A DNA stretch of 64,000 nucleotides from an uncultured Oscillospiraceae bacterium (GCA_964367585.1 CAYIYH010000003.1:36134-100133); one strand, 5' to 3'; counted from the first letter of the stretch, positions 26,143-63,285 are shown. Program-made: numbers and translations. The notes: generated by a model from the sequence alone, not told the origin.

Positions 26143-26287
26143 GTACTAAGCCTCTCTTTCCCAATTCCCTAATAATACTGTTATATATCATAGCACTTTT
26201 GTTTTGGTCTACTACTAGCATTTTATTTCCCTGACTCAACTCATACTATTTTTAAATCTTTTTTGTACATAACACTATTAATCAAAA

Positions 26288-27640: not shown

Positions 27641-27740
27641 TTTATTCTCTTCTTTCCGCCTTATTATCAAGGCATTGATAAACGATGTTACTCCAATTAT
27701 ATTATTTTCTATTTTCTACGAATATTCTGAAGCGAATTAG

Positions 27741-28937: not shown

Positions 28938-28983
28938 CAGTTTACACTCCTTCCTCGTAGATAATAACCTAAATAGTTTATAA

Positions 28984-28999
28984 AGCAATTATCATGCCA
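28984..28999 (-). promoter_or_regulatory. Sigma54 (-24/-12) promoter
   Basis: The minus strand reads TGGCAT-GATAA-TTGCT. The GG-N10-GC spacing is exact, and it lies ~47 nt upstream of the ATG at 28937. Confidence 0.7.
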
Positions 29000-29053
29000 C
29001 CCTTTTTTCTTGCATTTTAAAGAAAAAAAAGTCTCATCTTAATAGTTTGAAGT

Positions 29054-29099
29054 AAAAAAACAGGACATTGTAAAAATTTTCTTTACTACTTCCTGTTTT
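29054..29099 (-). terminator. Terminator after the sigma54 activator gene
   Basis: Stem aaacagga / tcctgttt with a long loop; a T-run follows on the minus strand. Confidence 0.5.
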
Positions 29100-29150
29100 C
29101 TAATACTATATGATAATTATTTCACTTATTATCTTATCTAGTATATTGTT

Positions 29151-30515: not shown

Positions 30516-30537
30516 ATGCCTCCTAATATATGTTATT

Positions 30538-30595
30538 ATAACCACGGCACGGACTAATCGTGCAAGCACATCAGCTCCTTAGCATCGATTTAAAA
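30538..30595 (+). repeat. Dispersed ~57-bp repeat, copy 2
   Basis: ATAACCACGGCACGGACTAATCGTGCAAGCACATCAGCTCCTTAGCATCGATTTAAAA. Confidence 0.75.
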
Positions 30596-44978: not shown

Positions 44979-45056
44979 TTGTAGTCTCCCTCCTACAGTA
45001 GTTAAATTGAAAAATCTAAATTTCTCGTCTTGCGTTACGTGACCTTGCTACAGAAA

Positions 45057-46430: not shown

Positions 46431-46439
46431 ACTTTTTAC

Positions 46440-47411
46440 CTACTTTCTATTATATTTCCAAATATACGACAACATATCTAACATCAAACTAGCTGCATAT
46501 AATGATGTGCTTTCATTAGTATCATATGGTGGGCATACCTCCACCATGTCAAATCCCACGACCTTACCTTTTTTTGCGATACCTTCAAAAATTGGCGGGA
46601 TTTCCTCATAATGAAATCCAAAAGGTTGCGGGGATCCACACCCAGGAACTAAGCTTTGATCCATAGCATCGATGTCGAATGTGACATAATAATTTTCAGC
46701 CTTTGGAATATTATCTATGACCCATTGAATTCCGTTGTCTCTAACTTCTTTCATATTCATTATAATATTTCCATTATTTCTCGCGTCTTTCCAGTCACTC
46801 GGTTGAGAACTTCCAATGCCTCTCATTCCTATTTGTACTATTTGACTTACATTCTTCAGTGTAGAAGCATGACGCATTGGACTACCTTGTCCCTCAGAGA
46901 TTCCACCCGGATTAAGCGAAAAATCCAAATGCGCATCAATGTGTATCACACATAGATCTTCATATTTGTCAAAACCTCTAAGTATCGGAATTGTAATCGC
47001 ATGGTCTCCACCAATAGTAAATGGCACGGCTCCTTTTTCGATAATTTTTCTTATTGCACTTTCACAATTAACAAAAGACTGCTCATATTCAGTGTGGACA
47101 ACATCGATATCGCCTAAATCGACAACTTTCCAATTCTCATCCATATAAACTTCATCATCGGTTGGATTGTACCATCCGTTATGAGAGTAGCAATTCCATG
47201 TAGATGCTTCTCTGATTGCTCTCGGTGCGAATCTAGCACCGGGCCTAATCGCTGTCCCCAAATCATAAGGCATGCCAATTACAGCAACATCCGCATCCAA
47301 TTCATCGATATTTCCCTCGTATGGCGCTTTTAAAAACGTTGATATTCCGACAAAAGGATTATGCATTGCCTTTTTCTCATTTGTGGTAAAACCCCAATTC
47401 TCAACCTTCAT
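46440..47411 (-). CDS. Agmatinase/guanidinobutyrase-like ureohydrolase (canonical metal site)
   Basis: Signature blocks TIGGDHAITIP, IHIDAHLDF, TFDIDAMD and GFDMVEVCPPYD. Confidence 0.85.
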   Translation of the reverse strand: MKVENWGFTTNEKKAMHNPFVGISTFLKAPYEGNIDELDADVAVIGMPYDLGTAIRPGARFAPRAIREASTWNCYSHNGWYNPTDDEVYMDENWKVVDLGDIDVVHTEYEQSFVNCESAIRKIIEKGAVPFTIGGDHAITIPILRGFDKYEDLCVIHIDAHLDFSLNPGGISEGQGSPMRHASTLKNVSQIVQIGMRGIGSSQPSDWKDARNNGNIIMNMKEVRDNGIQWVIDNIPKAENYYVTFDIDAMDQSLVPGCGSPQPFGFHYEEIPPIFEGIAKKGKVVGFDMVEVCPPYDTNESTSLYAASLMLDMLSYIWKYNRK

Positions 47412-47574
47412 AATATTTCCCTCATTACTCTCATAATATTCTATTAATTACAATTTTCTATTAATTCAAATATTATACAACAAAAGAAAGTTCGTTCCCC
47501 CGATTTGCTTACACATTTTCTTTTCAATCTTAAAAAAATACTTCCTTTTCTTATTAACTTTCTTCCTAAAATTA

Positions 47575-47610
47575 CAAAAAGAGTGCAAACTCTATTGAGC
47601 AAGCACTCTT
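47575..47610 (-). terminator. Terminator after the AraC-type regulator gene
   Basis: Stem aagagtgc / gcactctt; a T-rich tail follows on the minus strand. Confidence 0.5.
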
Positions 47611-47658
47611 CTTATTATTTCATAATCGCTCATAATCAGCCAAGAGAATAATTCCAAC

Positions 47659-48879
47659 TTAGGAATGTGGTTCTAAGTTATTAATATGATTCTGAGTAAT
47701 TACAACGATTCCGTCTTCTTCATCACTCATATTCTCTATAACAATCCAATCGTCGTATTTTTCGTGTTCTAGAATTTTAATTTCTTTACCTTTCAATATT
47801 TTTATACTATCTCCGTATGCTCTTTTCAACATCAAATTGGCATTAGTTTCAATATAAAAAATTTTCCCCTCTACACCATCAGTGCCATATACGCCCGGAG
47901 AATACTCTGAAAATCCTTTTGGTATTTTGCTATCGTGGATATTACTAATTTTAGATTCGGTTATATTCGCTTTTCCCGTACTTAGGCAAATATTTTCGAT
48001 AAAAGAATTTTTATCATCTAAAATAGTATATGAAAATCTCTTATTCGCATTTTCCTTTCGGAATGAATTAGGCGACATATCAAACTGTTCTTTAATAGCT
48101 TTATAGTAGTATTTCTCGCTTGAAAATCCCGCCTTATCGATTATTTCACTATTCGTAAAATCCGAATTCAATAATAGTGAAACTGCATGCATAGTCCTAT
48201 AATATGTCATAATGGATTGAAACGATTTTGTGAATTTAGATGTTATTTCCGCTGACATATATGTTGAAGTCATATGAGTCAAATCGCTAATATCATTAAG
48301 TGTCACTTTATTTGATAGATTATTTAGCATATAGTTATCTACACTCAAAAATCTCTCTACTTCGGTTTGCTTTATCCCTGGGATGGCAAGTAAGTTTTCC
48401 TTGATATCATCAAAGTTTTCAACTAAAAATTGCATTATGTCTTTGCCTTTTTGTTGCAACTCTAAATCATTTACATTCGATTTACTATTATCGATATGCA
48501 ACTTGAGGAATTTTTTCGTTTTTTCTTTAAAGCTGTCTACATTCCTGTTCCTATTTTTTTTCAGCAGGGCTGTATCAGCAAAAAAAGCAGTTGTAGCTAT
48601 ATTTATTATTTTATTTTCTATGCTAGGCTCCCATTTAAGACATAGCTCTTTGCTAAATGAAATGACTAGCACTTTATTTTCTTCTGCTCCAAAAATACTT
48701 ACCGGTTCATTTATATTGAGAGTCTCTATGCTGCCTTCTTCTAAGGTTGCTTTTCCCCCGATAAATCCAATTTCAATTTCACCCTCTAATATCCATATTA
48801 TTCTAAACCATGGAATAGAATGATAATTCATTTCTTTAATATTCAGGAGTTCTATTTTGATTTGCTTTTCATCTACCAT
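47659..48879 (-). CDS. AraC-family regulator with an additional ~120-aa C-terminal domain
   Basis: 406 aa. It has an N-terminal cupin-like region, a central AraC HTH (...MTYYRTMHAVSLLLNSDFTNSEIIDKAGFSSEKYYYKAIKEQFDMSP) and an extra C-terminal beta-rich segment. Confidence 0.75.
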   Translation of the reverse strand: MVDEKQIKIELLNIKEMNYHSIPWFRIIWILEGEIEIGFIGGKATLEEGSIETLNINEPVSIFGAEENKVLVISFSKELCLKWEPSIENKIINIATTAFFADTALLKKNRNRNVDSFKEKTKKFLKLHIDNSKSNVNDLELQQKGKDIMQFLVENFDDIKENLLAIPGIKQTEVERFLSVDNYMLNNLSNKVTLNDISDLTHMTSTYMSAEITSKFTKSFQSIMTYYRTMHAVSLLLNSDFTNSEIIDKAGFSSEKYYYKAIKEQFDMSPNSFRKENANKRFSYTILDDKNSFIENICLSTGKANITESKISNIHDSKIPKGFSEYSPGVYGTDGVEGKIFYIETNANLMLKRAYGDSIKILKGKEIKILEHEKYDDWIVIENMSDEEDGIVVITQNHINNLEPHS

Positions 48880-48963: not shown

Positions 48964-49431
48964 CTATACATAATTATATACCTTGTTTTCAATTTTACCT
49001 AATATTTCGAGCAAATCGGTAGTATTTATTATCATTGTAATCTCGGCGACACCCGGCGAGAAAATGAGTCTTTCGTGGCGCTTTACTTCTTCGTCTAGTA
49101 TTATTACTACATCTTTTTCATAACCAAGTAAAGATGCGCATCCTGGTAGACACCCTGTAACTTCAGTTAATTCTGCCCCGGGACATATTGAAATTTTCTC
49201 TCCGACTAGAGATTTTGCCTGGTTTAGATTAATCTTAACTCCCTCAACTGTTATGAATACGTAGTACGCCGAAGATTTGCCCTTCAGAAACAAACTCTTG
49301 CTTTCTGTTCCGACAAATCCCAACTCCTCACCGACTTTGCGCGCCGTTTCGTAAGACAGTATAGGCTCATGCTCGTATTCTTCGTATTTTATATCATTGT
49401 CTTTCAACAGTTTTAGAACTTTTTCATACAT
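48964..49431 (-). CDS. YbaK/EbsC-type aminoacyl-tRNA editing domain protein
   Basis: ~155 aa from ATG 49431 (MYEKVLKLLKDNDIKYEEYEHEP...). The pattern is YbaK-like as I remember it. Confidence 0.6.
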   Translation of the reverse strand: MYEKVLKLLKDNDIKYEEYEHEPILSYETARKVGEELGFVGTESKSLFLKGKSSAYYVFITVEGVKINLNQAKSLVGEKISICPGAELTEVTGCLPGCASLLGYEKDVVIILDEEVKRHERLIFSPGVAEITMIINTTDLLEILGKIENKVYNYV

Positions 49432-49539
49432 TTTATTTAGACTCCTAATTTCACACACATATGACTTATTTATAACCACATCACGATGTCCTCCGTCTCT
49501 ATATGCGACGGGCTACACTTCAGACTTTCTTTCTTTGCT

Positions 49540-50061
49540 TTACAATACTTTTCCATACATTTTCAGATTGTATACGTTTCCATTTTTGAATACTGCATTT
49601 CGAAGAGTCCCCTCTAATATAAACCCATTTCTCTCTAATATTTTCGCAGATGCAACATTAGGTTCGTATATTAATCCACTAATTCGAAGAATATCAAGCT
49701 GTGAAAAAGAAAGCTCACATATTAATGAAACTGCTTGTGTCATTATTCCCTTGCCTGCATGTTCATCGAGCAAAAAGTATCCGATTTCACAGTCCTTTTG
49801 ATATACGTCTTCTTTTAATTCGACAGAAATATTTCCGATATATTCTCCATCGACTACTATTGCACGAAATATTCCATCTTTACCATCTATGCCTTCTACT
49901 CTGTTCAGCCACCACTCCGCACTTTCATTTGTGTACGGGTATGGCAATCTATTTGAAAGGTATTTTCTATCTACCGAGTTGCATAAATTAACTAACAAAT
50001 CTTTATCTTTTATATCCCATTGTTTTAGTTCTACATTCATCTGTATTTTCTCCTGATTCAC
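49540..50061 (-). CDS. GNAT-family N-acetyltransferase (RimJ/RimL-like)
   Basis: 173 aa with the GNAT motif A region (HAGKGIMTQAVSL). Confidence 0.8.
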   Translation of the reverse strand: MNQEKIQMNVELKQWDIKDKDLLVNLCNSVDRKYLSNRLPYPYTNESAEWWLNRVEGIDGKDGIFRAIVVDGEYIGNISVELKEDVYQKDCEIGYFLLDEHAGKGIMTQAVSLICELSFSQLDILRISGLIYEPNVASAKILERNGFILEGTLRNAVFKNGNVYNLKMYGKVL

Positions 50062-50363: not shown

Positions 50364-50999
50364 TTGTTCAAGAAACTTTTATTATTAATGATAGGATTTT
50401 TCATCTGTGCTTTAGGGCAAAGCTTATTCATTTTTTGTGACTTAGGGCTTAATCCTTGGAGTGTTTTCCATCAAGGATTAACTTTTTATTTTCCAATCAC
50501 AATCGGTCAAGCCTCGCAATTAACGGGATTAATAATAATAGTTGTAGGAATATTTATTAGAGTCTACCCTGGTGTGGGTACTATATTAAACATGATTTTT
50601 ATTGGATTATTTACTGATATTATAATAGAATCAAATTTACTGTATACTCCCGATACATTTGTGGCAAAACTGGTGATGTGTATATCAGGAGTATTAATTC
50701 TTGGGTTTGGTATTTTCCTTTATATTATCCAAGAATTAGGTGCAGGACCACGTGACGGCCTAATGATTATGCTAACACAAAAGACAAAATTCCAAGTAGG
50801 AACGGTGAGAAACTTTATAGAAGTAACTATACTAATTATTGGGTATATTTTAGGTGGAACTGTTGGAATAGGCACTCTAATTTCGAGTTTGGGCGCAGGT
50901 TTTTCACTTCAATTATTCTTCGTGATTTTTAAGAAAAATGCAAAAAAGCTTAATCAAAAAAACTTATCAAATTTATTTCAGTCTAAAAAAAGCAGTTAG
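50364..50999 (+). CDS. YczE/YitT-like small multi-pass membrane protein (paralog of 30691-31320)
   Basis: 211 aa with a TTG start. By eye it is roughly three quarters or more identical to the 30691 protein. Confidence 0.65.
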   Translation: MFKKLLLLMIGFFICALGQSLFIFCDLGLNPWSVFHQGLTFYFPITIGQASQLTGLIIIVVGIFIRVYPGVGTILNMIFIGLFTDIIIESNLLYTPDTFVAKLVMCISGVLILGFGIFLYIIQELGAGPRDGLMIMLTQKTKFQVGTVRNFIEVTILIIGYILGGTVGIGTLISSLGAGFSLQLFFVIFKKNAKKLNQKNLSNLFQSKKSS

Positions 51000-52061
51000 T
51001 TATCTAATAACACTTTCAATCCAGTCCTTTATTACCATGGCAATTTCAATGTTATTTTTTTCCATCATCATCATATGGCCATTTCCATAAATTCCCTTCT
51101 CTTCTAGCCTCAAGTGTTCACAAGAAACCCCTGCTTGTCTCAAGTATTCATATGTCAAATGATCATACCTGGCATGATATGATGCTTCTGACGATAAAAT
51201 AAGGGTTGGTATATCTTTCAAATTTGGCAATGAATGAATTGGTTCACTTTGCAAAAAACCATCCGCCAAGCTTGCATTTCCGGAATCAAATATCTCTTTA
51301 CGAATATTATTTGCATCCTCAATTAACGGATCATATTTCAATGGAGTTTCGCTTAACCCCCACGGCCTTGCATCTTCATTTTCTATCGCAACATTTTGGA
51401 ACGGAGGCCCGATAGGCTCGATTGCAATTATTGCATTTACAAGCTCGGGACATTTTTCCGCAATTATCCAACCAAAGTTACCTGCTTGCGAATGAGTAAT
51501 TAGAGTTGCTTCACCTATTTCACTTAAGAGCGCAGCACCTGCTTTTTGAACTAATGTCTCAGTCTCCAAGTCACTTTTTAAAAAACCGACAGTGCTCCGG
51601 TAAAAATTGTCAAAAAACTTATCTCCCATCCTACCAGTTCCAGGCCATTGAGTATGTCTTTTAGCCTGTGGCCAATCGCCCAAACTCGAGGTGGCAGTAA
51701 AAAGACTTTCTAATAATTCCGCGCTATAGTAGTTCAATTCTCCTTGAAGTTTAGAGTTATATATCGATCTTCCTCTTGCTGGTTGTTCAAAAGTATAAAC
51801 AATAAAGCCCTCATCTATAAAATAGTTAATCCATCCATTTCTTCCATCTGGAGTTTCATGCCAACATAAAGATGTTAATGCTGATCCGTGAAAAAAAACT
51901 AGCGGTTTGGAATTGCGTATTTCTTTTGGAACGAATTTTTCTATATACGACTGGCCAATTAGATAGTTTTCGCCTTCTATTTCAATATACTCTCCACCTA
52001 CAAAAAAATTCTCTTTATATCGCATGTTTAATAGGGGACATACTTTAGAACTATCATTCAC
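51000..52061 (-). CDS. Alpha/beta-fold hydrolase
   Basis: 353 aa with a nucleophile-elbow-like motif (THSQAGN) and a C-terminal GNGHMMM block. Its stop codon directly abuts the stop of the convergent 50364 gene. Confidence 0.7.
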   Translation of the reverse strand: MNDSSKVCPLLNMRYKENFFVGGEYIEIEGENYLIGQSYIEKFVPKEIRNSKPLVFFHGSALTSLCWHETPDGRNGWINYFIDEGFIVYTFEQPARGRSIYNSKLQGELNYYSAELLESLFTATSSLGDWPQAKRHTQWPGTGRMGDKFFDNFYRSTVGFLKSDLETETLVQKAGAALLSEIGEATLITHSQAGNFGWIIAEKCPELVNAIIAIEPIGPPFQNVAIENEDARPWGLSETPLKYDPLIEDANNIRKEIFDSGNASLADGFLQSEPIHSLPNLKDIPTLILSSEASYHARYDHLTYEYLRQAGVSCEHLRLEEKGIYGNGHMMMMEKNNIEIAMVIKDWIESVIR

Positions 52062-52344: not shown

Positions 52345-53466
52345 TTATCTTGCAAATAGATCTTCTAGTATTGTACGCGCATCACTGTTGGTATATCCCC
52401 CAGGTGTACGGTCGAAATTTGGTGGGCGGTAAGAATCAAAGCGCTTCATTACATCGTCGATTTCATCCATACTTAAAACTGGCATTTCATAATCAAGAAG
52501 AGAATTCAAAAGCTCTGTCAATTCTTCTCTCGTAGAATTAATTGCTTCATAAAATTGTACGCTTTTTTCTGATGCGTGTTTTTCAGCTTTTTCTAAACAA
52601 GAAGGCAAAAATACTGCACAAGCATAACCATGTGGAACATGATAGTTTTCCGACAAAAAATATCCTAAAGCATGTCCAAAACATGTACTTGCAATGTTCA
52701 ATGAAAACCCAGCTAATATTGAAGCGAAATATAGATCGTCTCTCATTTCTTTTGTAAGCTCTATGATTTCCGCCTTATCTTTCAACACTCTATATACAGG
52801 CAATAGCATTTTAATTGCTTCAATTGAAAACATATCAGAAACTAGATTTCCTCTTGTTGAAAAATATCCTTCGCACGCATGACAAAATGCATCTATAGTA
52901 GTTGGAAGTGTATGTTTTAATGGAAGACCATCTGTATATTTTGGGTCGCAAAAAGCTATTTTTGCAAGAGTATCTTTGGATGATATACTTTTCTTTAGTC
53001 CAGTTGAATCCATTGTTATAACTGAATAAGGAGTTATTTCGCTGCCAGTTCCCGCTGTTGTACCTATCAAAACGAATGGCAATGCTGAATTTGTCCACTT
53101 ATGTTCCAAAATGGTTTCACCTTTAATGTCATTTGACGCAAATACAGATATCACCTTACATGAGTCAAGAGGAGAACCTCCACCTATTCCAATAATAAAG
53201 TCCACTTTGTTATTTCTAGCTATTGCCCCTGCTCTTTCACAAACCGAAAGCAATGGGTTGGGCTTCACCTCATCAAATAGGATATACTCAATACTGTTAT
53301 CGGCTAACGCACTCAAAACATCATCCAAAGCACCGCTCATTTTTGCGGACGTGCCACCGGTTACAATCATTGCTTTTTTTCCAAGTTTGAGTGCATTTGA
53401 ATGACTTCTTATACAATCTCTACCTGAAATTATTCTTACTGGAACATTAAAGTTTATGTTAATCAT
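52345..53466 (-). CDS. Iron-containing (group III) alcohol dehydrogenase
   Basis: 373 aa with GIGGGSPLDSCK and His-rich metal-site blocks (DAFCHACE...HALGY). Confidence 0.85.
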   Translation of the reverse strand: MININFNVPVRIISGRDCIRSHSNALKLGKKAMIVTGGTSAKMSGALDDVLSALADNSIEYILFDEVKPNPLLSVCERAGAIARNNKVDFIIGIGGGSPLDSCKVISVFASNDIKGETILEHKWTNSALPFVLIGTTAGTGSEITPYSVITMDSTGLKKSISSKDTLAKIAFCDPKYTDGLPLKHTLPTTIDAFCHACEGYFSTRGNLVSDMFSIEAIKMLLPVYRVLKDKAEIIELTKEMRDDLYFASILAGFSLNIASTCFGHALGYFLSENYHVPHGYACAVFLPSCLEKAEKHASEKSVQFYEAINSTREELTELLNSLLDYEMPVLSMDEIDDVMKRFDSYRPPNFDRTPGGYTNSDARTILEDLFAR

Positions 53467-53490: not shown

Positions 53491-54837
53491 CTAAAAGAAA
53501 ATGTGTATAAAAGGAACTATAAGTACAATAGTTAATATAACTCTTTCGAAGTAAATAATGAAAATGTCTCTAACTCTCAAAGGAACCGAGGATCCTAAAA
53601 TAATAGGAATTGGTTGAGCTATATAAAGCACTCCTGTAGTACCAATAACTGCGGTGAAAAATCTTGAGATTTCAGACTCCAAAGTCCCACCTATTACTGG
53701 AGCTAATAATTGGTCAACTACCCCTACAGTAATTGAAGTTGCTGTTTCAAATGGCTCTGGGATTCCAGCAAGCTGAATCAACCATCCAAATGGATACGCA
53801 AGAGTTTGTAATATACTAGTATATTCAAATATAGCAAGTGCTATCGTTCCTAAGGCCATTACTACAGGAACAACGCTAACGGCCATGCTTAAACCATCGA
53901 CAACACCTTCTTTTAGAGAGCCAGAAATAGTTCCTGTTTTTGCTCTGTTTACACCAGCTGCAACCGCAGCAGAAAACATGTCTTTACTTGCTGGAGATTC
54001 GCTCCTTACAATTTCTTTTCCGTTTAAATCAGTATTTTTATATCTATTTAAAGGATAAATTCTTGGTGTAATCATCGCGATAATAATACATATAATATAC
54101 GAAGTTAATATAAATTGGTATGCCATATGTCCTAAATTAACCATTTCTGCCATTACATACAAGAAGGGCATACTTACTAAAGAAAAGTTAGTGATAATAA
54201 TTGCCGCCTCCTTATCTGTATATTGTCCACTTTTATGCATTTTAGCAGTGTAATACATTCCTAATCCAGAAGAGCCAACCCAAGAAACAAGACAATCAAT
54301 ACAAGACATTCCAGGCACTTTGAATAATGTGTACATAATTTTTTGCATAAAAATGCCAATAAATTGAAGTGCTCCAAAGTTAGTTAAGAAAGGTAATATT
54401 AGACCACCAATTAGTACTGCAAGAGAAACAGATACACTCATTGACCCCATCAACCCACCTGTATTAGAACTGATTATAAACTCAGGTCCAATTTGCAATA
54501 AAGTCATTCCAAGAAAAAGAGCTCCTAGTATTCTGCAAATAGCCCATAGAGGTTTAGTTTTTACATTTTTTTCTAAAAAGCTAATTTTACCCTTTATGAA
54601 ATATGATAATATAGTTAAAATAGCACCTATTGAACAAATGACAAATGCGACCGGCACACGATTTTCCGATCCAATTGCCGATTTAACAGAATCTAATAAC
54701 CATGATAAAAAAGTTGTAACCTGACCATCTGAGGTAATCGGTCCTAAAAATATTAAAAAGGCAATAATTGAGGGTATTATGAATTTTAAATATTCACTAG
54801 TGGTAAATTTTTCTTTTGCTTTGCTTAATTCTGACAT
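53491..54837 (-). CDS. YjiH-like / Gate-domain membrane transporter (paralog 3)
   Basis: 448-aa multi-TM protein carrying the LQFIGIFMQKIMYTLFKVPGMSCIDCLVSWVG block. Confidence 0.7.
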   Translation of the reverse strand: MSELSKAKEKFTTSEYLKFIIPSIIAFLIFLGPITSDGQVTTFLSWLLDSVKSAIGSENRVPVAFVICSIGAILTILSYFIKGKISFLEKNVKTKPLWAICRILGALFLGMTLLQIGPEFIISSNTGGLMGSMSVSVSLAVLIGGLILPFLTNFGALQFIGIFMQKIMYTLFKVPGMSCIDCLVSWVGSSGLGMYYTAKMHKSGQYTDKEAAIIITNFSLVSMPFLYVMAEMVNLGHMAYQFILTSYIICIIIAMITPRIYPLNRYKNTDLNGKEIVRSESPASKDMFSAAVAAGVNRAKTGTISGSLKEGVVDGLSMAVSVVPVVMALGTIALAIFEYTSILQTLAYPFGWLIQLAGIPEPFETATSITVGVVDQLLAPVIGGTLESEISRFFTAVIGTTGVLYIAQPIPIILGSSVPLRVRDIFIIYFERVILTIVLIVPFIHIFF

Positions 54838-54966: not shown

Positions 54967-55941
54967 TCATATTATAAATTCATCTAGAAGTCTTAATAAA
55001 TAATATGCCGATATTCTCTCGCTTCTTCCCGACGGATCAAGTTCTGGCGCCACTTCAACGATGTCTATTCCATCTATTGGAGCGCTTGAAAGGGAATCCA
55101 TTATTTCACAGAACTGTCTAGGTGTTAACTTACTTTGTACGATTGATCCTGTACCAGGAAGAAAACCGGCATCTGTTGCATCTATATCTATAGATAAATA
55201 CACATGATCAACTCCCTTTGTCGCATGTTTGATAGCCATTAAGGCTATCTCTTTTGCACCTAAACGCCTAATATCATCCGAGGAAAAAATTTTTCCACCC
55301 ATGGATTCAATTATTGCGGTTTCCTCGCTATCAATCCAACCTGAGATTCCAATCCATACCATATTTGATTTTTCTACATTAGACAATTCCGAAATTCGAC
55401 GGGAATTTGTAGCATGATTATATTCCCCCCATGCCCCTAATCTGTCAGAAAAGTCCAAATGTCCGTCAATTTGAATATATCCAAACTTCGCATTAGGATC
55501 TATCTCTTCTAATGCTCTCGAATATCCTAAACATGCGGGATAACTATTAAAATGATCTCCGCCTAATGCGAGTGGTATCGTTCCAGCAATTCTTATCGCT
55601 TTTGTCATACTTGCAATAGATTCAATTGTCTGTGTCGGATCTTCCGGAAAAATAGTTGCGTTACCATAGTCAATAAGTTTACTGCGTCGTTTATTAGCAA
55701 ACGTTTTACCTGTTTTAATATCAATTATTTCATTTTTATCTTTTAAAGCACTTGTTTCTATTATTTCTGTTGATGCAACCCTTAGTGCATATGGCCCTAA
55801 TCTTGAACCAGTTCTACTTGAGTGAGTCCAATCTGATGGCATTCCCACTACCCCAATTCCTCCGTTTTTCACGTCATCTATATCTCCTACTGGAGACTTA
55901 AAAAGAGTAGGACTTGGAGATCCTATATTCTTATTTATCAA
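54967..55941 (-). CDS. Ureohydrolase (agmatinase/arginase family), canonical metal ligands
   Basis: Signature blocks LALGGDHFNSYP, IQIDGHLDF, SIDIDATD and GIDIVEVAPELD. A TTG start overlaps the upstream stop as TTGA. Confidence 0.8.
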   Translation of the reverse strand: MINKNIGSPSPTLFKSPVGDIDDVKNGGIGVVGMPSDWTHSSRTGSRLGPYALRVASTEIIETSALKDKNEIIDIKTGKTFANKRRSKLIDYGNATIFPEDPTQTIESIASMTKAIRIAGTIPLALGGDHFNSYPACLGYSRALEEIDPNAKFGYIQIDGHLDFSDRLGAWGEYNHATNSRRISELSNVEKSNMVWIGISGWIDSEETAIIESMGGKIFSSDDIRRLGAKEIALMAIKHATKGVDHVYLSIDIDATDAGFLPGTGSIVQSKLTPRQFCEIMDSLSSAPIDGIDIVEVAPELDPSGRSERISAYYLLRLLDEFII

Positions 55942-56930
55942 ATTATCACCTCATCTTTTTCTAAAAGGTCCATTCTAGCATAAATATACTTTAGAAGTGC
56001 GGTGACAAGCATTCTCTGCCCTGTTTTTACAATTCCAAATCCATTCACCGTGGGGTCAATACCCGTTACTATCAACGATGAAGTAGGGATTTGCCCCAAA
56101 GCAATAAGCATATTTTGAATTTCAACCAATGACATTCCATTCAAATTAGGCTTTTCAGACATACCGTGCAAGCTTGAATCCATAAACGAAATATCTAATA
56201 CAGCAACAACTTCATCCACTTTATCCCTTATTTCTTCAAATAACGACCTATAATTTCCGTGTAGAGCTTTTATTTTATTTTTGCTAACGATTTTTCCATT
56301 GTTATTAACAAAATCTTCATAAAATTCTATAGTTGGAAGCGAGTTTGGAGCAATAAATATCATGTTTTTCTTATCAATTACTTTTTCATTTACTAACTTC
56401 TCAACAGATAACTGTGATTTTGAATCCTTATTTTGAGAAACACTTCCCCCAAGTTGTATATAACCAATCTGATTACCTTCTGAAATTCCCTTAACAACAC
56501 TATAAATACTACCTTCACTTCCAGCTAAAACTATTGTGCTTGCTTTCGTATTTTGCAAATCAGAAAAAATTGATGATATTTTTTCACTAATCTCATTTTT
56601 TGTCAATCCATCAAGCGAAATATCACCTATATCAACAAGTTTTTCATTAATGCACCCAGTATCAACTACTTGTCTACTAACTACATCAATCGGTGCACTT
56701 TTGAATTGTGGATTTGAAAACCATCCATAATATACAGAAGTTTCCCGTATTCCAAGTGAAGCATATCTATATCCAGTAGAGTCTGAGTCTGATTCGAAAG
56801 GAATTCCAATCACAGCCACTTTGTCTGAGGTAAGTTCTTCCATCTGCTCAAATTTAGCACGCATGAAAGTTAGTCTTCCTGCAAGTCTGGGTAGTGCTGA
56901 AGTTCTTAATACAGAATTATCATCACTCAT
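55938..56930 (-). CDS. Arginase-fold paralog with degenerate metal site (predicted non-catalytic or neofunctionalised)
   Basis: It has the same block order as the ureohydrolases, but GGDH reads AGSEG, DAHxD reads LGGSVS and DxDxxD reads LDISFMD. Confidence 0.7.
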   Translation of the reverse strand: MSDDNSVLRTSALPRLAGRLTFMRAKFEQMEELTSDKVAVIGIPFESDSDSTGYRYASLGIRETSVYYGWFSNPQFKSAPIDVVSRQVVDTGCINEKLVDIGDISLDGLTKNEISEKISSIFSDLQNTKASTIVLAGSEGSIYSVVKGISEGNQIGYIQLGGSVSQNKDSKSQLSVEKLVNEKVIDKKNMIFIAPNSLPTIEFYEDFVNNNGKIVSKNKIKALHGNYRSLFEEIRDKVDEVVAVLDISFMDSSLHGMSEKPNLNGMSLVEIQNMLIALGQIPTSSLIVTGIDPTVNGFGIVKTGQRMLVTALLKYIYARMDLLEKDEVII

Positions 56931-56931
56931 A

Positions 56932-57852
56932 TTACTCCTCTTTTCCTAATATATTTACTATCAAAGTACATATTTCCTGTACCGATTCGATTTCATCGCG
57001 CCCCCAGAGGTCAATCTCTGGAACAAATCCCGTGAAGTCTCCAGCGATGAAGGATTTTTTTATTCTTTTAAGCGAAATTAACAATCTTTTCAATTCTTCT
57101 AGATCTAACCCCGAATACAAATTCTCGTAGGTCGTCTTCAAAATTAAAGGTTTCAACACATCTGCATCAACACTAATATATAACCCATCGAAATTCCTAG
57201 CCCACATATTGATGTCAACAATCAACTCTTCTATTTTGTTTTCTTTAATTTTATGGGATGGAATAACTTTAATACCCTCGGATTTTACAATTTCTTCGTT
57301 AGAAACAATACCCGAAACACCGATAATATTAATCTTTCCTTTATCGCATTCTAACAAGTCAATAATAGTCGAAGTTGTTTCGTATCTTGTTACTCCTGGA
57401 TTCTTTTCACTTTTATTTTTCGCAAGATCTAGACGTCTTGAAATCCTAATGAATCCTATGTTCTTCGTTTTTAATTCTTCCAAAATCCCATCAAATATTG
57501 GAGGGATAATGCTGTAATCTCCACCTATTATCAATTGCTTTGATTTTGTATCTATTATTTTTTGTGACTGACTTTTCAAAACATGATAATTCTTTTCGTA
57601 TTCCAAAGGAAATACATTCAAATCACCAATATCCACAACCTCAAATTGTGTGCATTCTATTCCATTTCTTTTTTCATTAGGATAACTTGAGTACCTCAAC
57701 TGACGCGGCATAATCCTTGAACCGGGAGTTCCACCACCATAATGGTCACAAAAAACGCCAGCAACGGCAATCGTTTTATCTGAAAGATCATTTAATTCAC
57801 AAAACGGTGCATCAAAAAATGTAGGAATATCTCTTAATTTATAGTCGTTCAA
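56932..57852 (-). CDS. Arginase-fold paralog with degenerate metal site
   Basis: GGDH reads GGDY and DAHxD reads ISRRLD, while SVDADVL retains D-x-D. A TTG start overlaps the upstream stop as TTGA, with AAGGAGG 7 nt upstream. Confidence 0.7.
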   Translation of the reverse strand: MNDYKLRDIPTFFDAPFCELNDLSDKTIAVAGVFCDHYGGGTPGSRIMPRQLRYSSYPNEKRNGIECTQFEVVDIGDLNVFPLEYEKNYHVLKSQSQKIIDTKSKQLIIGGDYSIIPPIFDGILEELKTKNIGFIRISRRLDLAKNKSEKNPGVTRYETTSTIIDLLECDKGKINIIGVSGIVSNEEIVKSEGIKVIPSHKIKENKIEELIVDINMWARNFDGLYISVDADVLKPLILKTTYENLYSGLDLEELKRLLISLKRIKKSFIAGDFTGFVPEIDLWGRDEIESVQEICTLIVNILGKEE

Positions 57853-58808
57853 TCAAACACCTCCTTCAAAATAAAGGAATTAATAACATTCAAAATTGTC
57901 TGCGCTGCAATATATTGCGTATGATTTCTATTGTCGAGTGATGGTGCTACATTTGTTAGTGAAACTGCGGTGAGCTTATTCCCTATCTCAATTCCATTTG
58001 ACAGGTTGATCAAGTGTTCCGGTTTTAATCCTCCGATATTTAAAACTGGAGTACCCGCCGCAAATCCAGTATCAACTACCGCCATATCTATAGAACAAAT
58101 TATATTTTCACATTGAGATACAAATTCATTAATTTTACCAGAAATATATTTTATTTCATTTTCATATATCTCCTCTGCAGTAATTACTTGAGCTGTGATA
58201 CGATCCAAATCATTCATTTGTATTTTGGATACATACCCATTCAACCCTATAATCATTACTTTCTTAACATTCTCAATCTGAGATAAAAGAGTTAGTAATT
58301 CCGTGGACTCTTCATCAACAAGATTCGGAAACGACAAACTATTCGAAAAAATAATTATCCCTGTATTAGAACAATATAGGTCAGGATTACTGATTATTGA
58401 TTCACTAATTCTACTATCTCCACCAAGTAGTATGGGAATTCCGCCTTTTGAATTGATTTCTGAAACTAATAATTTAAGTGAATCCATGTTTTTTTTGTAT
58501 AACATGTAGGATTCGTCAACATCCCCAAAATCGAATCCTGCATTTTCCCCAATAAATCTGTATTTTTTATTTGTTTCTATATCAATTATTGTATTTGAGG
58601 GAGATTCCCTATAACAATCAAGTATAGAGCCGACCATCCTTCTTATTTCTTTAGGACCATCTGAAGTGCCTACCCTAAGAGGTGGCACAGAATCCACCGG
58701 AATCCCCACGACACATAGCATATCTTTTAAAATAGATTCATCATTTTTGCTTGGAAATTGCGCAAAATTTGGGATATCTTTCTTCGAGACCATTATATTT
58801 TTTTTCAT
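57849..58808 (-). CDS. Arginase-fold paralog with degenerate metal site
   Basis: GGDH reads GGDS, DAHxD reads FSNSLS and DxDxxD reads SIDMAVVD. GGAGGA lies upstream of the ATG at 58808. Confidence 0.7.
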   Translation of the reverse strand: MKKNIMVSKKDIPNFAQFPSKNDESILKDMLCVVGIPVDSVPPLRVGTSDGPKEIRRMVGSILDCYRESPSNTIIDIETNKKYRFIGENAGFDFGDVDESYMLYKKNMDSLKLLVSEINSKGGIPILLGGDSRISESIISNPDLYCSNTGIIIFSNSLSFPNLVDEESTELLTLLSQIENVKKVMIIGLNGYVSKIQMNDLDRITAQVITAEEIYENEIKYISGKINEFVSQCENIICSIDMAVVDTGFAAGTPVLNIGGLKPEHLINLSNGIEIGNKLTAVSLTNVAPSLDNRNHTQYIAAQTILNVINSFILKEVFD

Positions 58809-58823
58809 TTTTCCTCCAAAATT

Positions 58824-59714
58824 TTAGTCACACACATTAATATTTATATTATGTCCACTATAAACGCCTTCAATCATTGACTTTTCGTATTTTGCCGCGT
58901 TCAACAACTTCTCATAATCTATACCTGTATCATATCCCATGTTATTTAGCATGAACACCAAATCTTCCGTGGAAGTATTTCCTGAAGCCCCTTTAGCAAA
59001 GGGACATCCACCCAAGCCACCTAGGGAAACTTGAACATCTGTAATTCCGCATTCGATAGCCGCGAGCGTATTTAGCATCCCCATATTCCTTGTATCGTGG
59101 ATATGCACCTGAATACAGCAATCAGGAAACTCTTGTATTGCTTTTTTTACGAATTCACGTATTATATCCGGCGTCGCAATCCCTATTGTGTCGGCTAATA
59201 TAAAATTTCTTATCCCAAAGGCATAACCTTTTTTCATGAAATCAATTAACTCGTGGACTTGTGGGAGACCCTCAATGGGGCACCCAAACGCAGTTGCTAT
59301 TCCCATCCATATTTTTAATTCCGGGATTTCTTCCATAATATTTTTCATGTCCTCAAATGACTGCTCATGTGTTCTATTTATGTTTGCCATATTATGACTT
59401 TTGCTTAGAGAAATAACATATGCCACTTCTTTTATTCCCAAAGAAATCGCCTTTTTTGCTCCAAACAAATTAGGAACTAATGCACTGAATACAACATCCT
59501 TGTATCTTTTTAAACATTCTTCAACTATCTCTTGTGCATCTTTTAATTGTGGAATTGCTTTTGGACTTACAAATGAAGTAACTTCCATGTGCTTTACACC
59601 GGATTGCAAAATTTGATCGATAATTTCCAATTTTGTTTTTGCAGGTATGTATTCTTTTAAATTTTGAAACCCATCTCTTGGGCCTACTTCGATTATATTA
59701 ATTTTCTTATTCAC
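58824..59714 (-). CDS. HMG-CoA lyase-like (DRE-TIM metallolyase) enzyme
   Basis: 296 aa with N-terminus INIIEVGPRDGFQN and an HIHDTRNMG metal-site block. Confidence 0.85.
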   Translation of the reverse strand: MNKKINIIEVGPRDGFQNLKEYIPAKTKLEIIDQILQSGVKHMEVTSFVSPKAIPQLKDAQEIVEECLKRYKDVVFSALVPNLFGAKKAISLGIKEVAYVISLSKSHNMANINRTHEQSFEDMKNIMEEIPELKIWMGIATAFGCPIEGLPQVHELIDFMKKGYAFGIRNFILADTIGIATPDIIREFVKKAIQEFPDCCIQVHIHDTRNMGMLNTLAAIECGITDVQVSLGGLGGCPFAKGASGNTSTEDLVFMLNNMGYDTGIDYEKLLNAAKYEKSMIEGVYSGHNININVCD

Positions 59715-59732: not shown

Positions 59733-60959
59733 CTAAATGATACCTTTAAGCTTTAGCTCTTCAATTTTCTTTGAGTCAAAGCCCAAATATTCATTATAAA
59801 TTTCTTCATTATGTTGACCTAACAGAGGGGATGGCATTCTTATCTCGGCTTTTTTATCACTAAATTTAATATGATCACCTGTGATAGTTGTTTTTCCCGC
59901 AACAGGATGATCTACTTCAACAAACATTTCTCTTGCCTTAGCGATATGAGGATCTGTGACAACTTTATCAATTGTATAAATCGGAGCCGAAGGCACTCCA
60001 ACTTCTAATAATATTTCTACTATTTGCTCTACATCATATTTTAATGACCAACTTTCAATAATAGTCTTTAATTCTTCATGATGTTTTAGTCTGCTTGGAT
60101 TATCAGCAAATTTCTCTTCTTCCAGTACTTCCGGAAATCCGGCTACTTTTGCGAAAACTTCGAATAATTTGTCATTTCCGGCTGCAATCACAACCGTTCC
60201 ATCTTTAGCTCTAAAGGTATCGTAAGGATAAGATGATGCATATCTATTTCCGTTTCTTTGTGGTATTTTTCCTTCCGTGAGGTATATTTGTGTGATTATC
60301 TCTAAAGATGAAACTACCGAATCAACTAATGAAACATCTATTTTCTGTCCTTCTCCCGTTTTTATTTTATTAACCACAGCAGCCAAAACACCAATTGTCA
60401 TGCTTAAACCACCTAAAACATCTCCCATAGCAGTGCCTGTACGAGTCGGTTCTCCTCCAGGCCATCCAGTGGTACTCATTAACCCTCCCATAGCCTGTGC
60501 AATAATGTCATATCCCGGTCTCTCGCTATACGGCCCATAATGACCAAAACCCGAGACGCACCCATATACTATTCCAGGATTTACTTTCTTCAATTCTTCA
60601 TATCCAATACCTAACCTATCCATAACACCTGGCCTATAGTTTTCTAATACTACATCAGCTTGTTTTACCATCTCCAGAAACATACTCTTACCTTTTTCAG
60701 ATTTTAAGTTTAATGTAATACCTTTTTTGTTTCTGTTAATATTCATATAGTAAGCGCTTTCACCATTTACAAAAGGTGCGAATGCTCTTGTATCGTCGCC
60801 TTTTTCTGGGATTTCTATTTTAATAACATTCGCACCCATGTCCGCCAAAAGCATCCCACTATAGGGCCCTGCCAAAACTCTTGTTAAATCTAAAACTGTA
60901 ATCCCATCTAAAATTCCCTTATTCACCTTAATCACATTTTCCTTCCGTTGATATATCAA
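59733..60959 (-). CDS. Family III (CaiB/BaiF) CoA-transferase
   Basis: GITVLDLTRVLAGPYSGMLLADMGANVIKIE is typical of the family. The track start is TTG 60959; GTG 60935 after GGAAGGA is an alternative. Confidence 0.85.
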   Translation of the reverse strand: MIYQRKENVIKVNKGILDGITVLDLTRVLAGPYSGMLLADMGANVIKIEIPEKGDDTRAFAPFVNGESAYYMNINRNKKGITLNLKSEKGKSMFLEMVKQADVVLENYRPGVMDRLGIGYEELKKVNPGIVYGCVSGFGHYGPYSERPGYDIIAQAMGGLMSTTGWPGGEPTRTGTAMGDVLGGLSMTIGVLAAVVNKIKTGEGQKIDVSLVDSVVSSLEIITQIYLTEGKIPQRNGNRYASSYPYDTFRAKDGTVVIAAGNDKLFEVFAKVAGFPEVLEEEKFADNPSRLKHHEELKTIIESWSLKYDVEQIVEILLEVGVPSAPIYTIDKVVTDPHIAKAREMFVEVDHPVAGKTTITGDHIKFSDKKAEIRMPSPLLGQHNEEIYNEYLGFDSKKIEELKLKGII

Positions 60960-61003: not shown

Positions 61004-61019
61004 AGCAAACATCGTGCCA
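61004..61019 (-). promoter_or_regulatory. Sigma54 (-24/-12) promoter
   Basis: The minus strand reads TGGCAC-GATGT-TTGCT, a consensus match with exact spacing, ~45-70 nt upstream of the CoA-transferase start. Confidence 0.75.
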
Positions 61020-61115: not shown

Positions 61116-61161
61116 TTGCAACATGTTGCTACTTTATGCAACATAGTAACATTATGTTGCA
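61116..61161 (-). promoter_or_regulatory. Candidate enhancer (UAS) sites for the sigma54 activator
   Basis: There is a perfect 12-bp palindrome GCAACATGTTGC (61118-61129) and the pair TGCAACATA-N7-TATGTTGCA (61137-61161). Both share a TGCAACAT half-site and lie ~100-145 bp upstream of the -24 element. Confidence 0.5.
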
Positions 61162-61230
61162 GCGCAAGACGCTACATCCTTATGCAAACATTTTTTTATA
61201 AACTTCATGATTTCACACATAGCAATATAA

Positions 61231-61266
61231 AAAAGGAGATATTCGCCAAAATGCCGATATCTCCCT
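61231..61266 (-). terminator. Terminator after the PrpR-type activator gene
   Basis: Stem ggagatat / atatctcc; CTTTTTTATATT follows on the minus strand. Confidence 0.6.
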
Positions 61267-61299
61267 TTAAGGTTCTAGATTAATATGTGTAAACACAAC

Positions 61300-63285
61300 T
61301 TATATTTTTATATTATATTTATTCATTTTTCTCCAAAGAGTTTGCCTACTCATGGATAATATTCTCGCAGTCTTAATGACTGAAAAATTATTTTCAGTTA
61401 AAGCTTCTATTATTGCTATTCTTTCTAAGTTACCATCTTCATATGTGTACTTCTGCGCTATCGAGCACCTATTCTCCATACTCGACATATCAATATTATT
61501 GGAATTATCTTCACTAATATTAGTTAGCAAGCTTTTTCCAATTAAAGAGCTGTTTAACACATCATAACCATTTTTCATCAGTATGAAGAATCTTTCTACG
61601 AAATTCTGCAACTCTCTAACATTGCCGTACCATTTATAGTTTTTAATTACATCCATATATATAACAGTCTCGAAATCATTCGTGAAATCGATTGATAAAT
61701 CTTTCGAATATTCTTTCAAAAACTTATGGCCCAAAAAGGCAATATCCCCCTCTCTGTTTCTCAAAGGTGGGATTTTCACATCTAGAACACTTAATCTAAA
61801 ATATAAATCTCTCCTAAATTCGTTATTTTTAACCTCTTCTTCCAAATCTTTGTTAGTAGCAGTAATAACTCTAATATCTACCGGAATTACTTCACTACTC
61901 CCTATTCTCCTCACTTCTTTTTCTTGAAGCACTCGCAGCAGATTAACTTGAGTCTCTCTTGAAATTTCGCCTATTTCATCTAAAAATATTGTCCCACCAT
62001 GTGCCATTTCAAAAAAACCCGGCTTTCCCTCTTTGTTTGCACCTGTAAAAGAACCTTCTTCATATCCAAACAACTCACTTTCCAATAGCCCTTTAGCTAT
62101 TGCAGCGCAATTAACTGCCACAAAAGGTCCATTCCTTCTCTCACTTGCATTATGGATACTTTGAGCAAACAACTCTTTCCCAGTGCCAGTCTCTCCTCTG
62201 ATAATTACTGCAGCATTTTCCTTTGCATAACTTTTGGCAATACTGATCGCTGACAATATTTCCGCAGATTGCCCTAGTATATCCTCAAACTTGTATTTTG
62301 CAATCAACCCTTTTTTTGCTAATTTCATTCTTATTTTTTTTTCATTATTTTGTATAGTATTTATGTCCTGAAAAGTCGCAACTATACCCTTTATATCCCT
62401 GTTCACCATTATTGGTATTATATTTGTTATTAATAAGGTGTTGTTTATGTTTATTAGCTTGTTTAATTTTGGAACTTCACTCTCAAGCACTTCTTTTATT
62501 TCTTCTTGCAAAATAGGCACTGATAATGACATATCAAAATGATCATCCGCATGTTTGCCTATCATTTTACTAGCATTATTATTAATTGTTAATATATTAC
62601 AGTTCTGATCTGTTACGATAATTGAATCATGACTATAATTCAAAATTGCCATATATTTTTCTAATTGAGTTTTTAGTTCAATCTGCCTTATCTCTTCTTC
62701 TTTATGAATTTTTAACATTTTCTTTGCTACATTTATAGCACTTATAATGGCATCGTCAGAACTTTCTACGATAACATGCTCAAGACCAAGCTCTTTAGCA
62801 TATTTTTCTGTAACACTACCACCAACAGCCATTTTTGCACCATCTTTTATGGCTTCTCGAACACAAATTTCACAATCTTTATTGTTCTTATAATAATATG
62901 GCCTAATATTGACATCTAATATTTTACAAATAGCCTTTATATCCAAACTCACTTCTTGATAAGTAAAAAGAGCAACTAATCCTTCACAATCTTTAGTTGC
63001 TTCAAATATCCTAATATAATCCTCAGTGCTTGTTTCCACATTTACGACATTAGCTTTGTATTTACTACTTAAGTAACTTGCAACACCTTTTCGACTAATA
63101 AAGATCTTCGCACCTGAACTAATAAGTTCGCGATACAGACCGTCAACTTCATCAACTGTACTTAAATATACCCCTATATTATGTTCATTATTTTCACTAA
63201 TAATTTTTTCCGCATTCTCCACAAGGTATTTTGATGGTGCAATGAAGCAGATTTCATTCGCCTTTATTTTATGATTTAAATTCAT
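61300..63285 (-). CDS. Sigma54-dependent activator with PrpR-like N-terminal sensor domain, PAS, AAA+ and HTH
   Basis: 661 aa with motifs GETGTGKELFAQSIH and ESELFGYEEGSFTGA, a C-terminal HTH, and an N-terminal ~190 aa that resemble the PrpR_N domain. Confidence 0.85.
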   Translation of the reverse strand: MNLNHKIKANEICFIAPSKYLVENAEKIISENNEHNIGVYLSTVDEVDGLYRELISSGAKIFISRKGVASYLSSKYKANVVNVETSTEDYIRIFEATKDCEGLVALFTYQEVSLDIKAICKILDVNIRPYYYKNNKDCEICVREAIKDGAKMAVGGSVTEKYAKELGLEHVIVESSDDAIISAINVAKKMLKIHKEEEIRQIELKTQLEKYMAILNYSHDSIIVTDQNCNILTINNNASKMIGKHADDHFDMSLSVPILQEEIKEVLESEVPKLNKLININNTLLITNIIPIMVNRDIKGIVATFQDINTIQNNEKKIRMKLAKKGLIAKYKFEDILGQSAEILSAISIAKSYAKENAAVIIRGETGTGKELFAQSIHNASERRNGPFVAVNCAAIAKGLLESELFGYEEGSFTGANKEGKPGFFEMAHGGTIFLDEIGEISRETQVNLLRVLQEKEVRRIGSSEVIPVDIRVITATNKDLEEEVKNNEFRRDLYFRLSVLDVKIPPLRNREGDIAFLGHKFLKEYSKDLSIDFTNDFETVIYMDVIKNYKWYGNVRELQNFVERFFILMKNGYDVLNSSLIGKSLLTNISEDNSNNIDMSSMENRCSIAQKYTYEDGNLERIAIIEALTENNFSVIKTARILSMSRQTLWRKMNKYNIKI

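Follow-up and report, generated by a model that had tools for sequence, protein, structure and literature searches.

Why would a bacterium carry four arginase-fold genes in a row if three of them have lost at least half of the residues that bind the metals of the active site? This question is raised by a stretch of DNA of 64,000 nucleotides (nt) from an uncultured Oscillospiraceae bacterium (GCA_964367585.1 CAYIYH010000003.1:36134-100133), hereafter the window, in which four consecutive minus-strand genes between positions 54967 and 58808, designated g1 to g4 in the order in which they are read, form a quartet of paralogs. Our best explanation, to which we give a probability of roughly 0.62, is that they encode the subunits of one obligate hetero-oligomeric ureohydrolase, with g4 as the sole catalytic chain. 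This prediction draws on sequence comparison and on analogy with characterised relatives, and its basis is indirect, i.e., the obligate co-occurrence of the four genes and their overlaps.

All four products exceeded the gathering score of the Pfam Arginase family (PF00491, 22 bits), which we used as the cut-off. These are g1 (57849..58808, 319 amino acids, 97.8 bits), g2 (56932..57852, 306 amino acids, 95.7 bits), g3 (55938..56930, 330 amino acids, 42.3 bits) and g4 (54967..55941, 324 amino acids, 187.9 bits). The first three are degenerate paralogs (21-27% pairwise identity to g4) and predicted non-catalytic subunits, of which g3, at once the most divergent and the most constrained, is predicted to have a specific role, and g4 is the predicted catalytic subunit with a complete binuclear-metal site. 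Read directly, the junctions are a TTGA overlap (TTG start, TGA stop) at g1/g2 and again at g3/g4, and a 1-nt gap at g2/g3; a GGAGG-like Shine-Dalgarno site lies about 8 nt to the 5' side of each start. We propose that the overlapping stop and start codons would couple the synthesis of the four chains. An earlier note on this DNA had described four minus-strand arginase-fold paralogs, the three degenerate ones full-length and intact with good Shine-Dalgarno sites, joined by two TTGA overlaps and a 1-nt gap, and the open reading frames (ORFs), sites and junctions are exactly as it had read them. No NCBIfam model for agmatinase, arginase or formimidoylglutamase was matched by g1-g4 above its curated cut-off; g4 scored 117.1 against 174.3 for TIGR01230, 116.8 against 302 for NF002564, 102.2 against 229 for TIGR01227 and 78.5 against 227.6 for TIGR01229.

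The metal ligands were mapped by phmmer alignments to solved structures and by profile-profile comparison (hhalign) of the orthologue families with that of g4 (43 distinct positional orthologues for g1, 57 for g2 and 52 for g4), and the hhalign results, with probabilities of 99.9-100% for the g1-g3 families, agree with the structure alignments. All six ligands are kept in g4 (H130, D159, H161, D163, D252 and D254) versus one of six in g1 (S132, S155, S157, S159, D241, A243; motifs GGDS, FSNSLS and DMA), three of six in g2 (Y113, S138, R140, D142, D229, D231; GGDY, ISRRLD and DAD) and one of six in g3 (E139, G161, S163, S165, D246, S248; AGSE, LGGSVS and DIS), in line with the earlier claim that only the last gene retains the six His/Asp ligands and that each of the others lacks at least three. 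In arginases the guanidinium group is held by a Glu; this residue is E296 in g4, and the E277-equivalent position is N286 in g1, G275 in g2 and a Gly in g3. Across families of 43-57 orthologues the complete ligand set together with this Glu is restricted to g4, and the first Asp of the DxD motif is retained in the g1, g2 and g3 families. A canonical cluster built from ligands at shifted positions was also considered for g1-g3 and is ruled out by the profile-profile alignments and because no His is conserved at any position across the three families. The fold itself was checked on g3, the weakest Pfam match of the four, for which an AlphaFold2 model (mean predicted local distance difference test score, pLDDT, 72; predicted template modelling score 0.80) searched with Foldseek against the PDB gave ureohydrolases as all top matches (probability 1.0, template modelling score 0.62-0.69), and the model predicts the three-layer alpha/beta/alpha architecture of the arginase fold. 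Profile and structure alignment, a check that the earlier note had suggested, thus confirms both the fold and the loss of ligands.

The six ligands and E296 of g4 are invariant across its orthologues save for D252, which is replaced by Cys in nine of them. The Cys variant (motif SLCIDAMD) was observed in the g4 genes of loci L003, L004, L007, L008, L013, L014, L052, L057 and L058, located in genomes of Gammaproteobacteria (Thioglobus, Njordibacter, Pseudomonadales) or on unclassified metagenome contigs. We take the first Asp of the DxD motif, here D252, to be the bridge between both metals in arginases, and its replacement by Cys may indicate a different, more thiophilic metal.

How far does the block extend beyond this genome? 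Few proteins belong to the g3 family: searches retrieved 21 clusters at E<=1e-3 among 5.8 billion (5.8e9) proteins and, in a collection of 1.84 billion, 35 representatives at E<=1e-30. A genome scan with the g3 alignment, restricted to one genome per species, returned 51 loci. The g3- and g4-based scans together recovered the order g1-g2-g3-g4 in about 140 independent loci, well in excess of a chance arrangement, so that the neighbourhood search proposed in the earlier note finds the block conserved well beyond Firmicutes. At the loci found through g3 (n = 55), the order and strand of the quartet are kept wherever the contig reaches far enough, and each gene best matches the window gene of equal position; junctions of -1, -4, -8 or -10 nt recur across loci. 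The hosts in the g3 scan are marine Alphaproteobacteria (Ruegeria, Shimia, Sulfitobacter, Pelagimonas, HTCC2083), Gammaproteobacteria (Thioglobus/SUP05, Njordibacter, Halioglobus), Betaproteobacteria, Desulfuromonadales and an uncultured Firmicute; the closest relatives are uncultured Firmicutes (L005, L059, L141-L143). Database names of g3 and g4 relatives are generic ("agmatinase family protein", "arginase family enzyme", "hypothetical protein").

Given that a search based on g3 is biased towards loci that contain it, the scan of metagenome contigs was started from the g4 alignment. It returned 80 loci; in 60 of them at least 3.2 kb of sequence precede g4, and g1, g2 and g3 were present in order at all 60. 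Moreover, two blocks (L017, 8125-11980, and L068, 4988-8975) stand alone among unrelated genes, without a transporter, CoA-transferase (CoA, coenzyme A) or lyase. Their neighbours include pantoate ligase, phosphoribosyltransferase, Ppx/GppA and GMC oxidoreductase genes, the last in L068, and a xanthine-dehydrogenase-type molybdoenzyme in L017. Because the quartet is found without its usual partners in such surroundings, we consider that it acts as one self-contained unit. The 60/60 co-occurrence and the lone blocks make subunits of a single enzyme, as the earlier note had suggested, the best-supported reading.

A separate observation concerns one metagenome sample, in which three contigs of 0.33, 0.64 and 9.4 Mb (L002-L004) each carry the whole operon. 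These operons adjoin transposase genes of the IS66, IS1595 or IS91 type, and their aldehyde dehydrogenase is truncated to 98 amino acids, a picture that suggests recent mobility of the cluster.

Could g1-g3 be decaying duplicates whose location next to g4 is a historical accident? They have lost their catalytic equipment and evolve faster than g4, with 20-49% identity to the window proteins in genome loci as opposed to 50-67% for g4 (72% for its closest relative in the protein collection). We nevertheless find this explanation scarcely credible, as intact ORFs are present wherever a locus has enough sequence, the gene order is conserved from Firmicutes to Proteobacteria, and the ratio of nonsynonymous to synonymous substitution rates (dN/dS; Nei-Gojobori method, 14 informative locus pairs) is well below 1. 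Ratios of 0.14-0.30 for g1, 0.17-0.38 for g2 and 0.09-0.47 for g3, next to 0.05-0.20 for g4, point to purifying selection, which acts on g4 about two to three times more strongly. The degenerate residues are, furthermore, fixed family by family, as illustrated by g3, in which an invariant Gly replaces the first Asp of DxHxD and the second Asp of DxD is a Ser in 51/53 sequences, and other invariant residues are likewise particular to each family. Neither frameshifts nor frequent loss of g1-g3 were seen in the relatives, save in the fragmented assembly of L050. Decay into pseudogenes, which the earlier note had named as an outcome that would overturn its view, is thus refuted by the intact ORFs, the dN/dS values (0.09-0.47 for g1-g3) and the 60/60 co-occurrence, with the order of the block kept across phyla. 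Based on the kept order, the fixed residues, the low dN/dS and the strict co-occurrence, we regard g1-g3 as ancient, conserved non-catalytic paralogs.

What would such paralogs do beside a catalytic chain? To our knowledge, heteromeric ureohydrolases were not recognised before 2024, and the metformin and dimethylguanidine hydrolases were reportedly presented in that year as a recent adaptation to a man-made drug. The metformin hydrolase (MetCaCb, MefH-alpha-beta or MfmAB; PDB 8x3g, 8ryi, 8snf) and the dimethylguanidine hydrolase (DmgH) are enzymes of the kind for which the earlier note knew no precedent, and this premise of novelty does not hold. They are alpha2beta4 hexamers of alpha-beta-beta trimers; either chain by itself is inactive, activity requires co-expression, and 3-5 of the 6 ligands are missing from the beta subunit (PMC11271267, PMC11399263, PMC11647477). 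MetCb/MefH-beta, a pseudoenzyme with the arginase fold, is indispensable for activity, and with its N- and C-terminal segments it caps the alpha chain's active site (PMC11271267, PMC11399263). Like these systems, the quartet consists of adjacent arginase genes, one with 6/6 ligands and the other(s) degenerate, but it comprises four genes instead of two, with three distinct families of pseudo-subunit. It also differs in its operon partners (a CoA-transferase and a gene of 3-hydroxy-3-methylglutaryl (HMG)-CoA-lyase type) and in its history, the metformin hydrolase being a recent adaptation to a drug and the quartet being ancient and found widely among marine bacteria and anaerobic Firmicutes. 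The metformin hydrolase chains are not orthologous to the quartet, as the g4 profile gives them 95 and 82 bits versus 146 and 144 for guanidine hydrolases, and g1-g3 as single sequences gave no match to them at E<0.01. By analogy, we consider that the quartet works like an enzyme of the metformin hydrolase type, although it lies outside that clade.

Paired arginase genes have been surveyed in the literature; the pairs listed there come from Proteobacteria, Actinomycetota, Acidobacteriota and Planctomycetota, and quartets are not among the entries. Our searches of the literature available to us found no description of the quartet or its operon, the two-subunit metformin and dimethylguanidine hydrolases being the nearest described systems. 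With its three distinct pseudo-subunits, the quartet would extend the two-subunit precedent of 2024.

For g4, as for g1-g3, the nearest relatives of solved structure are the Ni-dependent guanidine hydrolase GdmH (Synechocystis Sll1077, PDB 7esr/7oi1) and the guanidinase of Nitrospira inopinata (9fek), which have the six ligands and an N-terminal segment in common with g4. The g4 family profile scores 146 bits on 9fek and 144 on 7esr, compared with 116 on a guanidinopropionase and 108 on an agmatinase, and the single g4 sequence reaches 95 bits against the guanidine hydrolases, i.e., a similarity at the level of the family. Their structural entries contain a single kind of chain, whereas g4 was accompanied by three degenerate partners at 60/60 metagenome loci. 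Agmatinase (SpeB), guanidinobutyrase (GbuA) and guanidinopropionase (GpuA) share the family and the catalytic residues with g4 and, unlike the quartet, are homo-oligomers made from single genes. The arginase-like protein of Trypanosoma brucei (PDB 4rhi series), which g1 matches weakly (E 3e-4), has the arginase fold without a binuclear cluster, as do g1-g3, but this type is solitary and the degenerate proteins of the quartet are always encoded together with a catalytic paralog.

Such solitary proteins bring up a second explanation, in which only g4 is an enzyme, an ordinary homo-oligomer, and g1-g3 serve as separate sensors or ligand-binders, metal-delivery helpers or regulators and not as stoichiometric subunits. 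Cluster-less arginase-fold proteins do occur alone in eukaryotes and prokaryotes (discussed in PMC11271267), a quartet operon lacking hypA/hypB genes could need another metal-loading helper, and the unequal constraint on g1, g2 and g3 (25, 16 and 56 positions conserved at >=93%, compared with 112 in g4) would fit different jobs. We consider this explanation unlikely, if worth keeping in mind, given the strict co-occurrence, fixed order and conserved overlaps in about 140 loci across phyla, the movement of the block as a unit into unrelated neighbourhoods, and the fact that neighbouring catalytic and degenerate arginase genes encode an obligate complex in the one case characterised so far.

The distribution of the conserved positions bears on yet another explanation, namely that one or more of g1-g3, most plausibly g3, has acquired a new, metal-independent site within a multi-activity complex or a short cascade. 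Many of the 56 near-invariant positions of g3 are polar or charged (R9, R15, R24, E46, R62, E63, T64, S65, Y67, W70, N73, Q75, D100, D103, Q159, D246, S248, K302, Q305 and R306), the 56 positions being a constraint above what a simple scaffold might need, and the retained first Asp of DxD in all three degenerate families would also be compatible with such a site. On the other hand, no catalytic motif can be recognised, neither His nor Cys is conserved, and the conserved positions of g3 are concentrated in residues 8-80 and 246-319, i.e., at the termini, as would be the case for interface or capping segments. In the Roseobacter clade (L028, L030-L050), furthermore, large deletions in the central fold, which include the region around the former active site, leave g1, g2 and g3 with about 256, 224 and 291 amino acids; the terminal blocks are retained, the ORFs remain intact and under purifying selection, and g4 is full length. 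The new chemistry that the earlier note had entertained for the degenerate genes has gained no positive evidence, and we judge a new site in them improbable. A bolder proposal, which we rate as doubtful, is a four-chain class of holoenzyme in which the pseudo-subunits would, beyond stabilising g4, form a closed substrate chamber or a second, metal-independent site (g3 being the best candidate), and whose chemistry would act on an abundant marine metabolite of the guanidino type and feed an undescribed CoA-transferase/HMG-CoA-lyase route.

Returning to a hetero-oligomer with a single catalytic chain, the two beta chains take up non-equivalent positions in an alpha-beta-beta trimer of the metformin hydrolase type, and a division of these positions among paralogs would offer a plausible route to several pseudo-subunits. 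Conserved termini together with a dispensable centre, as found in g1-g3, are the pattern expected under such a model. Several points weigh against this interpretation of the quartet. Arginase-fold proteins usually form trimers or hexamers, into which four distinct chains in equal numbers do not fit. Co-occurrence and overlapping genes also fit four proteins that act in sequence or separately. Ni-chaperone genes adjoin guanidine hydrolase genes, and hypA/hypB genes of this kind lie near those of the metformin and dimethylguanidine hydrolases, but families of the hypA/hypB type were not among the operon genes (Pfam) in the quartet loci examined (the window, L002-L004, L057 and L141-L143). Finally, the pathway proposed below is a weaker part of the reading than the enzyme, because the link with the CoA-transferase and lyase genes is not universal.

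From these comparisons we infer an assembly, a role for the pseudo-subunits, a reaction and a class of substrate. The binuclear metal centre of g4 would activate a water molecule for attack on a guanidinium-type carbon, and g1-g3, duplicates stripped of the metal site and of the Glu, would be retained as its non-catalytic partners. On the model of the metformin hydrolase beta subunit, their termini would most likely stabilise g4 and build or cap the substrate pocket, and thereby confer substrate specificity. Because the nearest solved relatives of g4 are guanidine hydrolases, a small or unusual guanidine-type compound is its likely substrate; once imported, this compound would likely be cleaved by the quartet enzyme with release of urea or a related small product. 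The carbon skeleton could then be converted to a CoA ester and split into acetyl-CoA and a carbonyl compound by the CoA-transferase and the enzyme of HMG-CoA-lyase type. The other operon partners suggest that the skeleton may pass through an aldehyde, which aerobes would oxidise and the anaerobic Firmicutes would process with an alcohol dehydrogenase. More specific candidates (an HMG- or mevaldate-type skeleton, citramalate, or 4-guanidino-3-hydroxybutyrate giving guanidinoacetaldehyde) had no support beyond enzyme-family logic, and we do not claim them.

The operon that suggests this route is read on the minus strand in the order promoter, CoA-transferase, HMG-CoA-lyase type, g1-g4, Gate transporter and iron-containing alcohol dehydrogenase. 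Its first gene (59733..60959) encodes a family III CoA-transferase (Pfam CoA_transf_3, 427.6 bits), whose nearest NCBIfam models, of the CoA:oxalate, succinate-glutarate and succinyl-CoA:mesaconate types, all remained below their cut-offs. It is followed by the HMG-CoA-lyase-family gene (58824..59714; Pfam HMGL-like 145.5 bits, NF004283 278.7 versus a cut-off of 246), and both genes are co-located with the quartet in most related loci. Directly downstream of g4 lies a membrane transporter with Gate (nucleoside-recognition) domains (53491..54837; Pfam Gate 51.7 bits), followed by the iron-containing alcohol dehydrogenase (52345..53466; Pfam Fe-ADH 159 bits). An alpha/beta hydrolase gene, also on the minus strand (51000..52061; Pfam Abhydrolase_6), comes 284 nt after the latter, but its membership in the operon is uncertain; no homologue was detected in L001-L055 by tblastn at E<=1e-5, and for want of a counterpart in these loci we do not count it as a firm part. 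Three further genes were noted close by, i.e., a YczE-family membrane protein on the plus strand (50364-50999; NCBIfam 164 bits versus a cut-off of 205), which abuts the hydrolase gene, and a GNAT acetyltransferase (49540-50061) and a protein with a YbaK-type tRNA-editing domain (48964-49479), none of the three with an apparent link to the quartet.

Expression appears to be under sigma-54 control. An exact -24/-12 promoter match (TGGCACGATGTTTGCT, minus strand) is found at 61004..61019, 45 nt upstream of the CoA-transferase start, and the repeats at 61117..61187, upstream of this promoter, comprise an inverted repeat I2 (TGCAACATGTTGCTACT / AGTAACATTATGTTGCA) and a direct repeat D1, which by their position are candidate activator-binding sites. 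Further upstream, a sigma-54-dependent activator with the Pfam architecture PrpR_N-PAS-AAA+-HTH_8 (61300..63285, minus strand) is the likely regulator of the quartet operon. A hairpin on the minus strand (AAAAGGAGATAT / ATATCTCCCTTT, 61231-61268), directly after the regulator gene and followed by a T-run, looks like an intrinsic terminator that would part the regulator from the sigma-54 operon.

Much of this layout is shared with the closest relatives. In the Firmicute loci L059 and L141-L143 it matches that of the window, including the type of regulator beside the quartet; a Gate-transporter orthologue follows g4 in these loci and in L005, and an iron alcohol dehydrogenase follows the transporter in L059 and L141-L143, its place being taken in proteobacterial operons by an aldehyde dehydrogenase. 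There are also local additions. A 100-amino-acid protein of the TIGR04076 family is encoded between g4 and the transporter in L059 (2492-2794), L141 and L142 and has no counterpart in the window. One Firmicute relative adds a tripartite ATP-independent periplasmic (TRAP)-type transporter and pyruvate:ferredoxin oxidoreductase; a gene for the latter follows the operon in L143 (16168-19686), and none is present in the window.

The proteobacterial operons start with a binding protein of PotD size (with or without a PcaD-like alpha/beta hydrolase, which differs from the hydrolase encoded at 51000..52061 in the window), an ATP-binding cassette (ABC) ATPase and two permeases. After g1-g4 they continue with a protein of 236 amino acids, an aldehyde dehydrogenase, a CoA-transferase and a gene of HMG-CoA-lyase type, with or without a second CoA-transferase. 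The 236-amino-acid protein, which is absent from the window, is always encoded 3' of g4 in these operons (about 90 loci; e.g., L057, 9107-9817), and a 27-sequence alignment revealed 51 invariant positions, including four Trp and a C-R-G motif. The protein matches no Pfam or NCBIfam model, its 93 clusters are all called hypothetical, and its AlphaFold2 model (pLDDT 78) gave no significant fold match in the PDB, the best being formylglycine-generating enzyme (E 0.24). Some of the clusters have 235-396 metagenome members.

Elsewhere in the window, a second arginase locus on the minus strand (44043-48879) comprises two arginase-family genes that flank a second Gate transporter (45057-46430), and an AraC-type regulator (47659-48879). 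Both arginase-family products have all six ligands, and only that of 46440-47411 (GGDH/IDAHLD/DIDAMD) scores above the TIGR01230 cut-off (188 versus 174.3), the other (44043-44978; GGDH/FDAHFD/DIDALD) remaining below it. These two extra genes bring the number of arginase-family genes in the window to six. A second sigma-54 unit, also on the minus strand (24703-30569), has an activator (29151-30569) and an exact -24/-12 promoter (TGGCATGATAATTGCT, 28984-28999). Its other genes encode a member of the octopine/nopaline dehydrogenase family (27741-28988), the third Gate transporter (26288-27670) and a methyltransferase of the MttB family (24703-26142). Taken with the arginase genes, this unit suggests that the organism is a specialist for opines, guanidino compounds and methylated amines.

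If our interpretation of the quartet is true, the heteromeric principle among ureohydrolases would be old and widespread, and expandable to three different pseudo-subunits. The block recurs in SUP05/Thioglobus, the roseobacter group (Ruegeria, Shimia, Sulfitobacter), other marine Proteobacteria and anaerobic Firmicutes, and some of the protein clusters have hundreds of metagenome members. In practical terms, the names "agmatinase" and "agmatinase family protein" carried by g3 and g4 relatives are misleading for annotation. The quartet would provide a natural system for studying how duplicated enzymes turn into obligate non-catalytic partners, and it points to a catabolic route and a nitrogen-rich substrate in abundant marine bacteria that lie beyond the pathways assigned to them so far.

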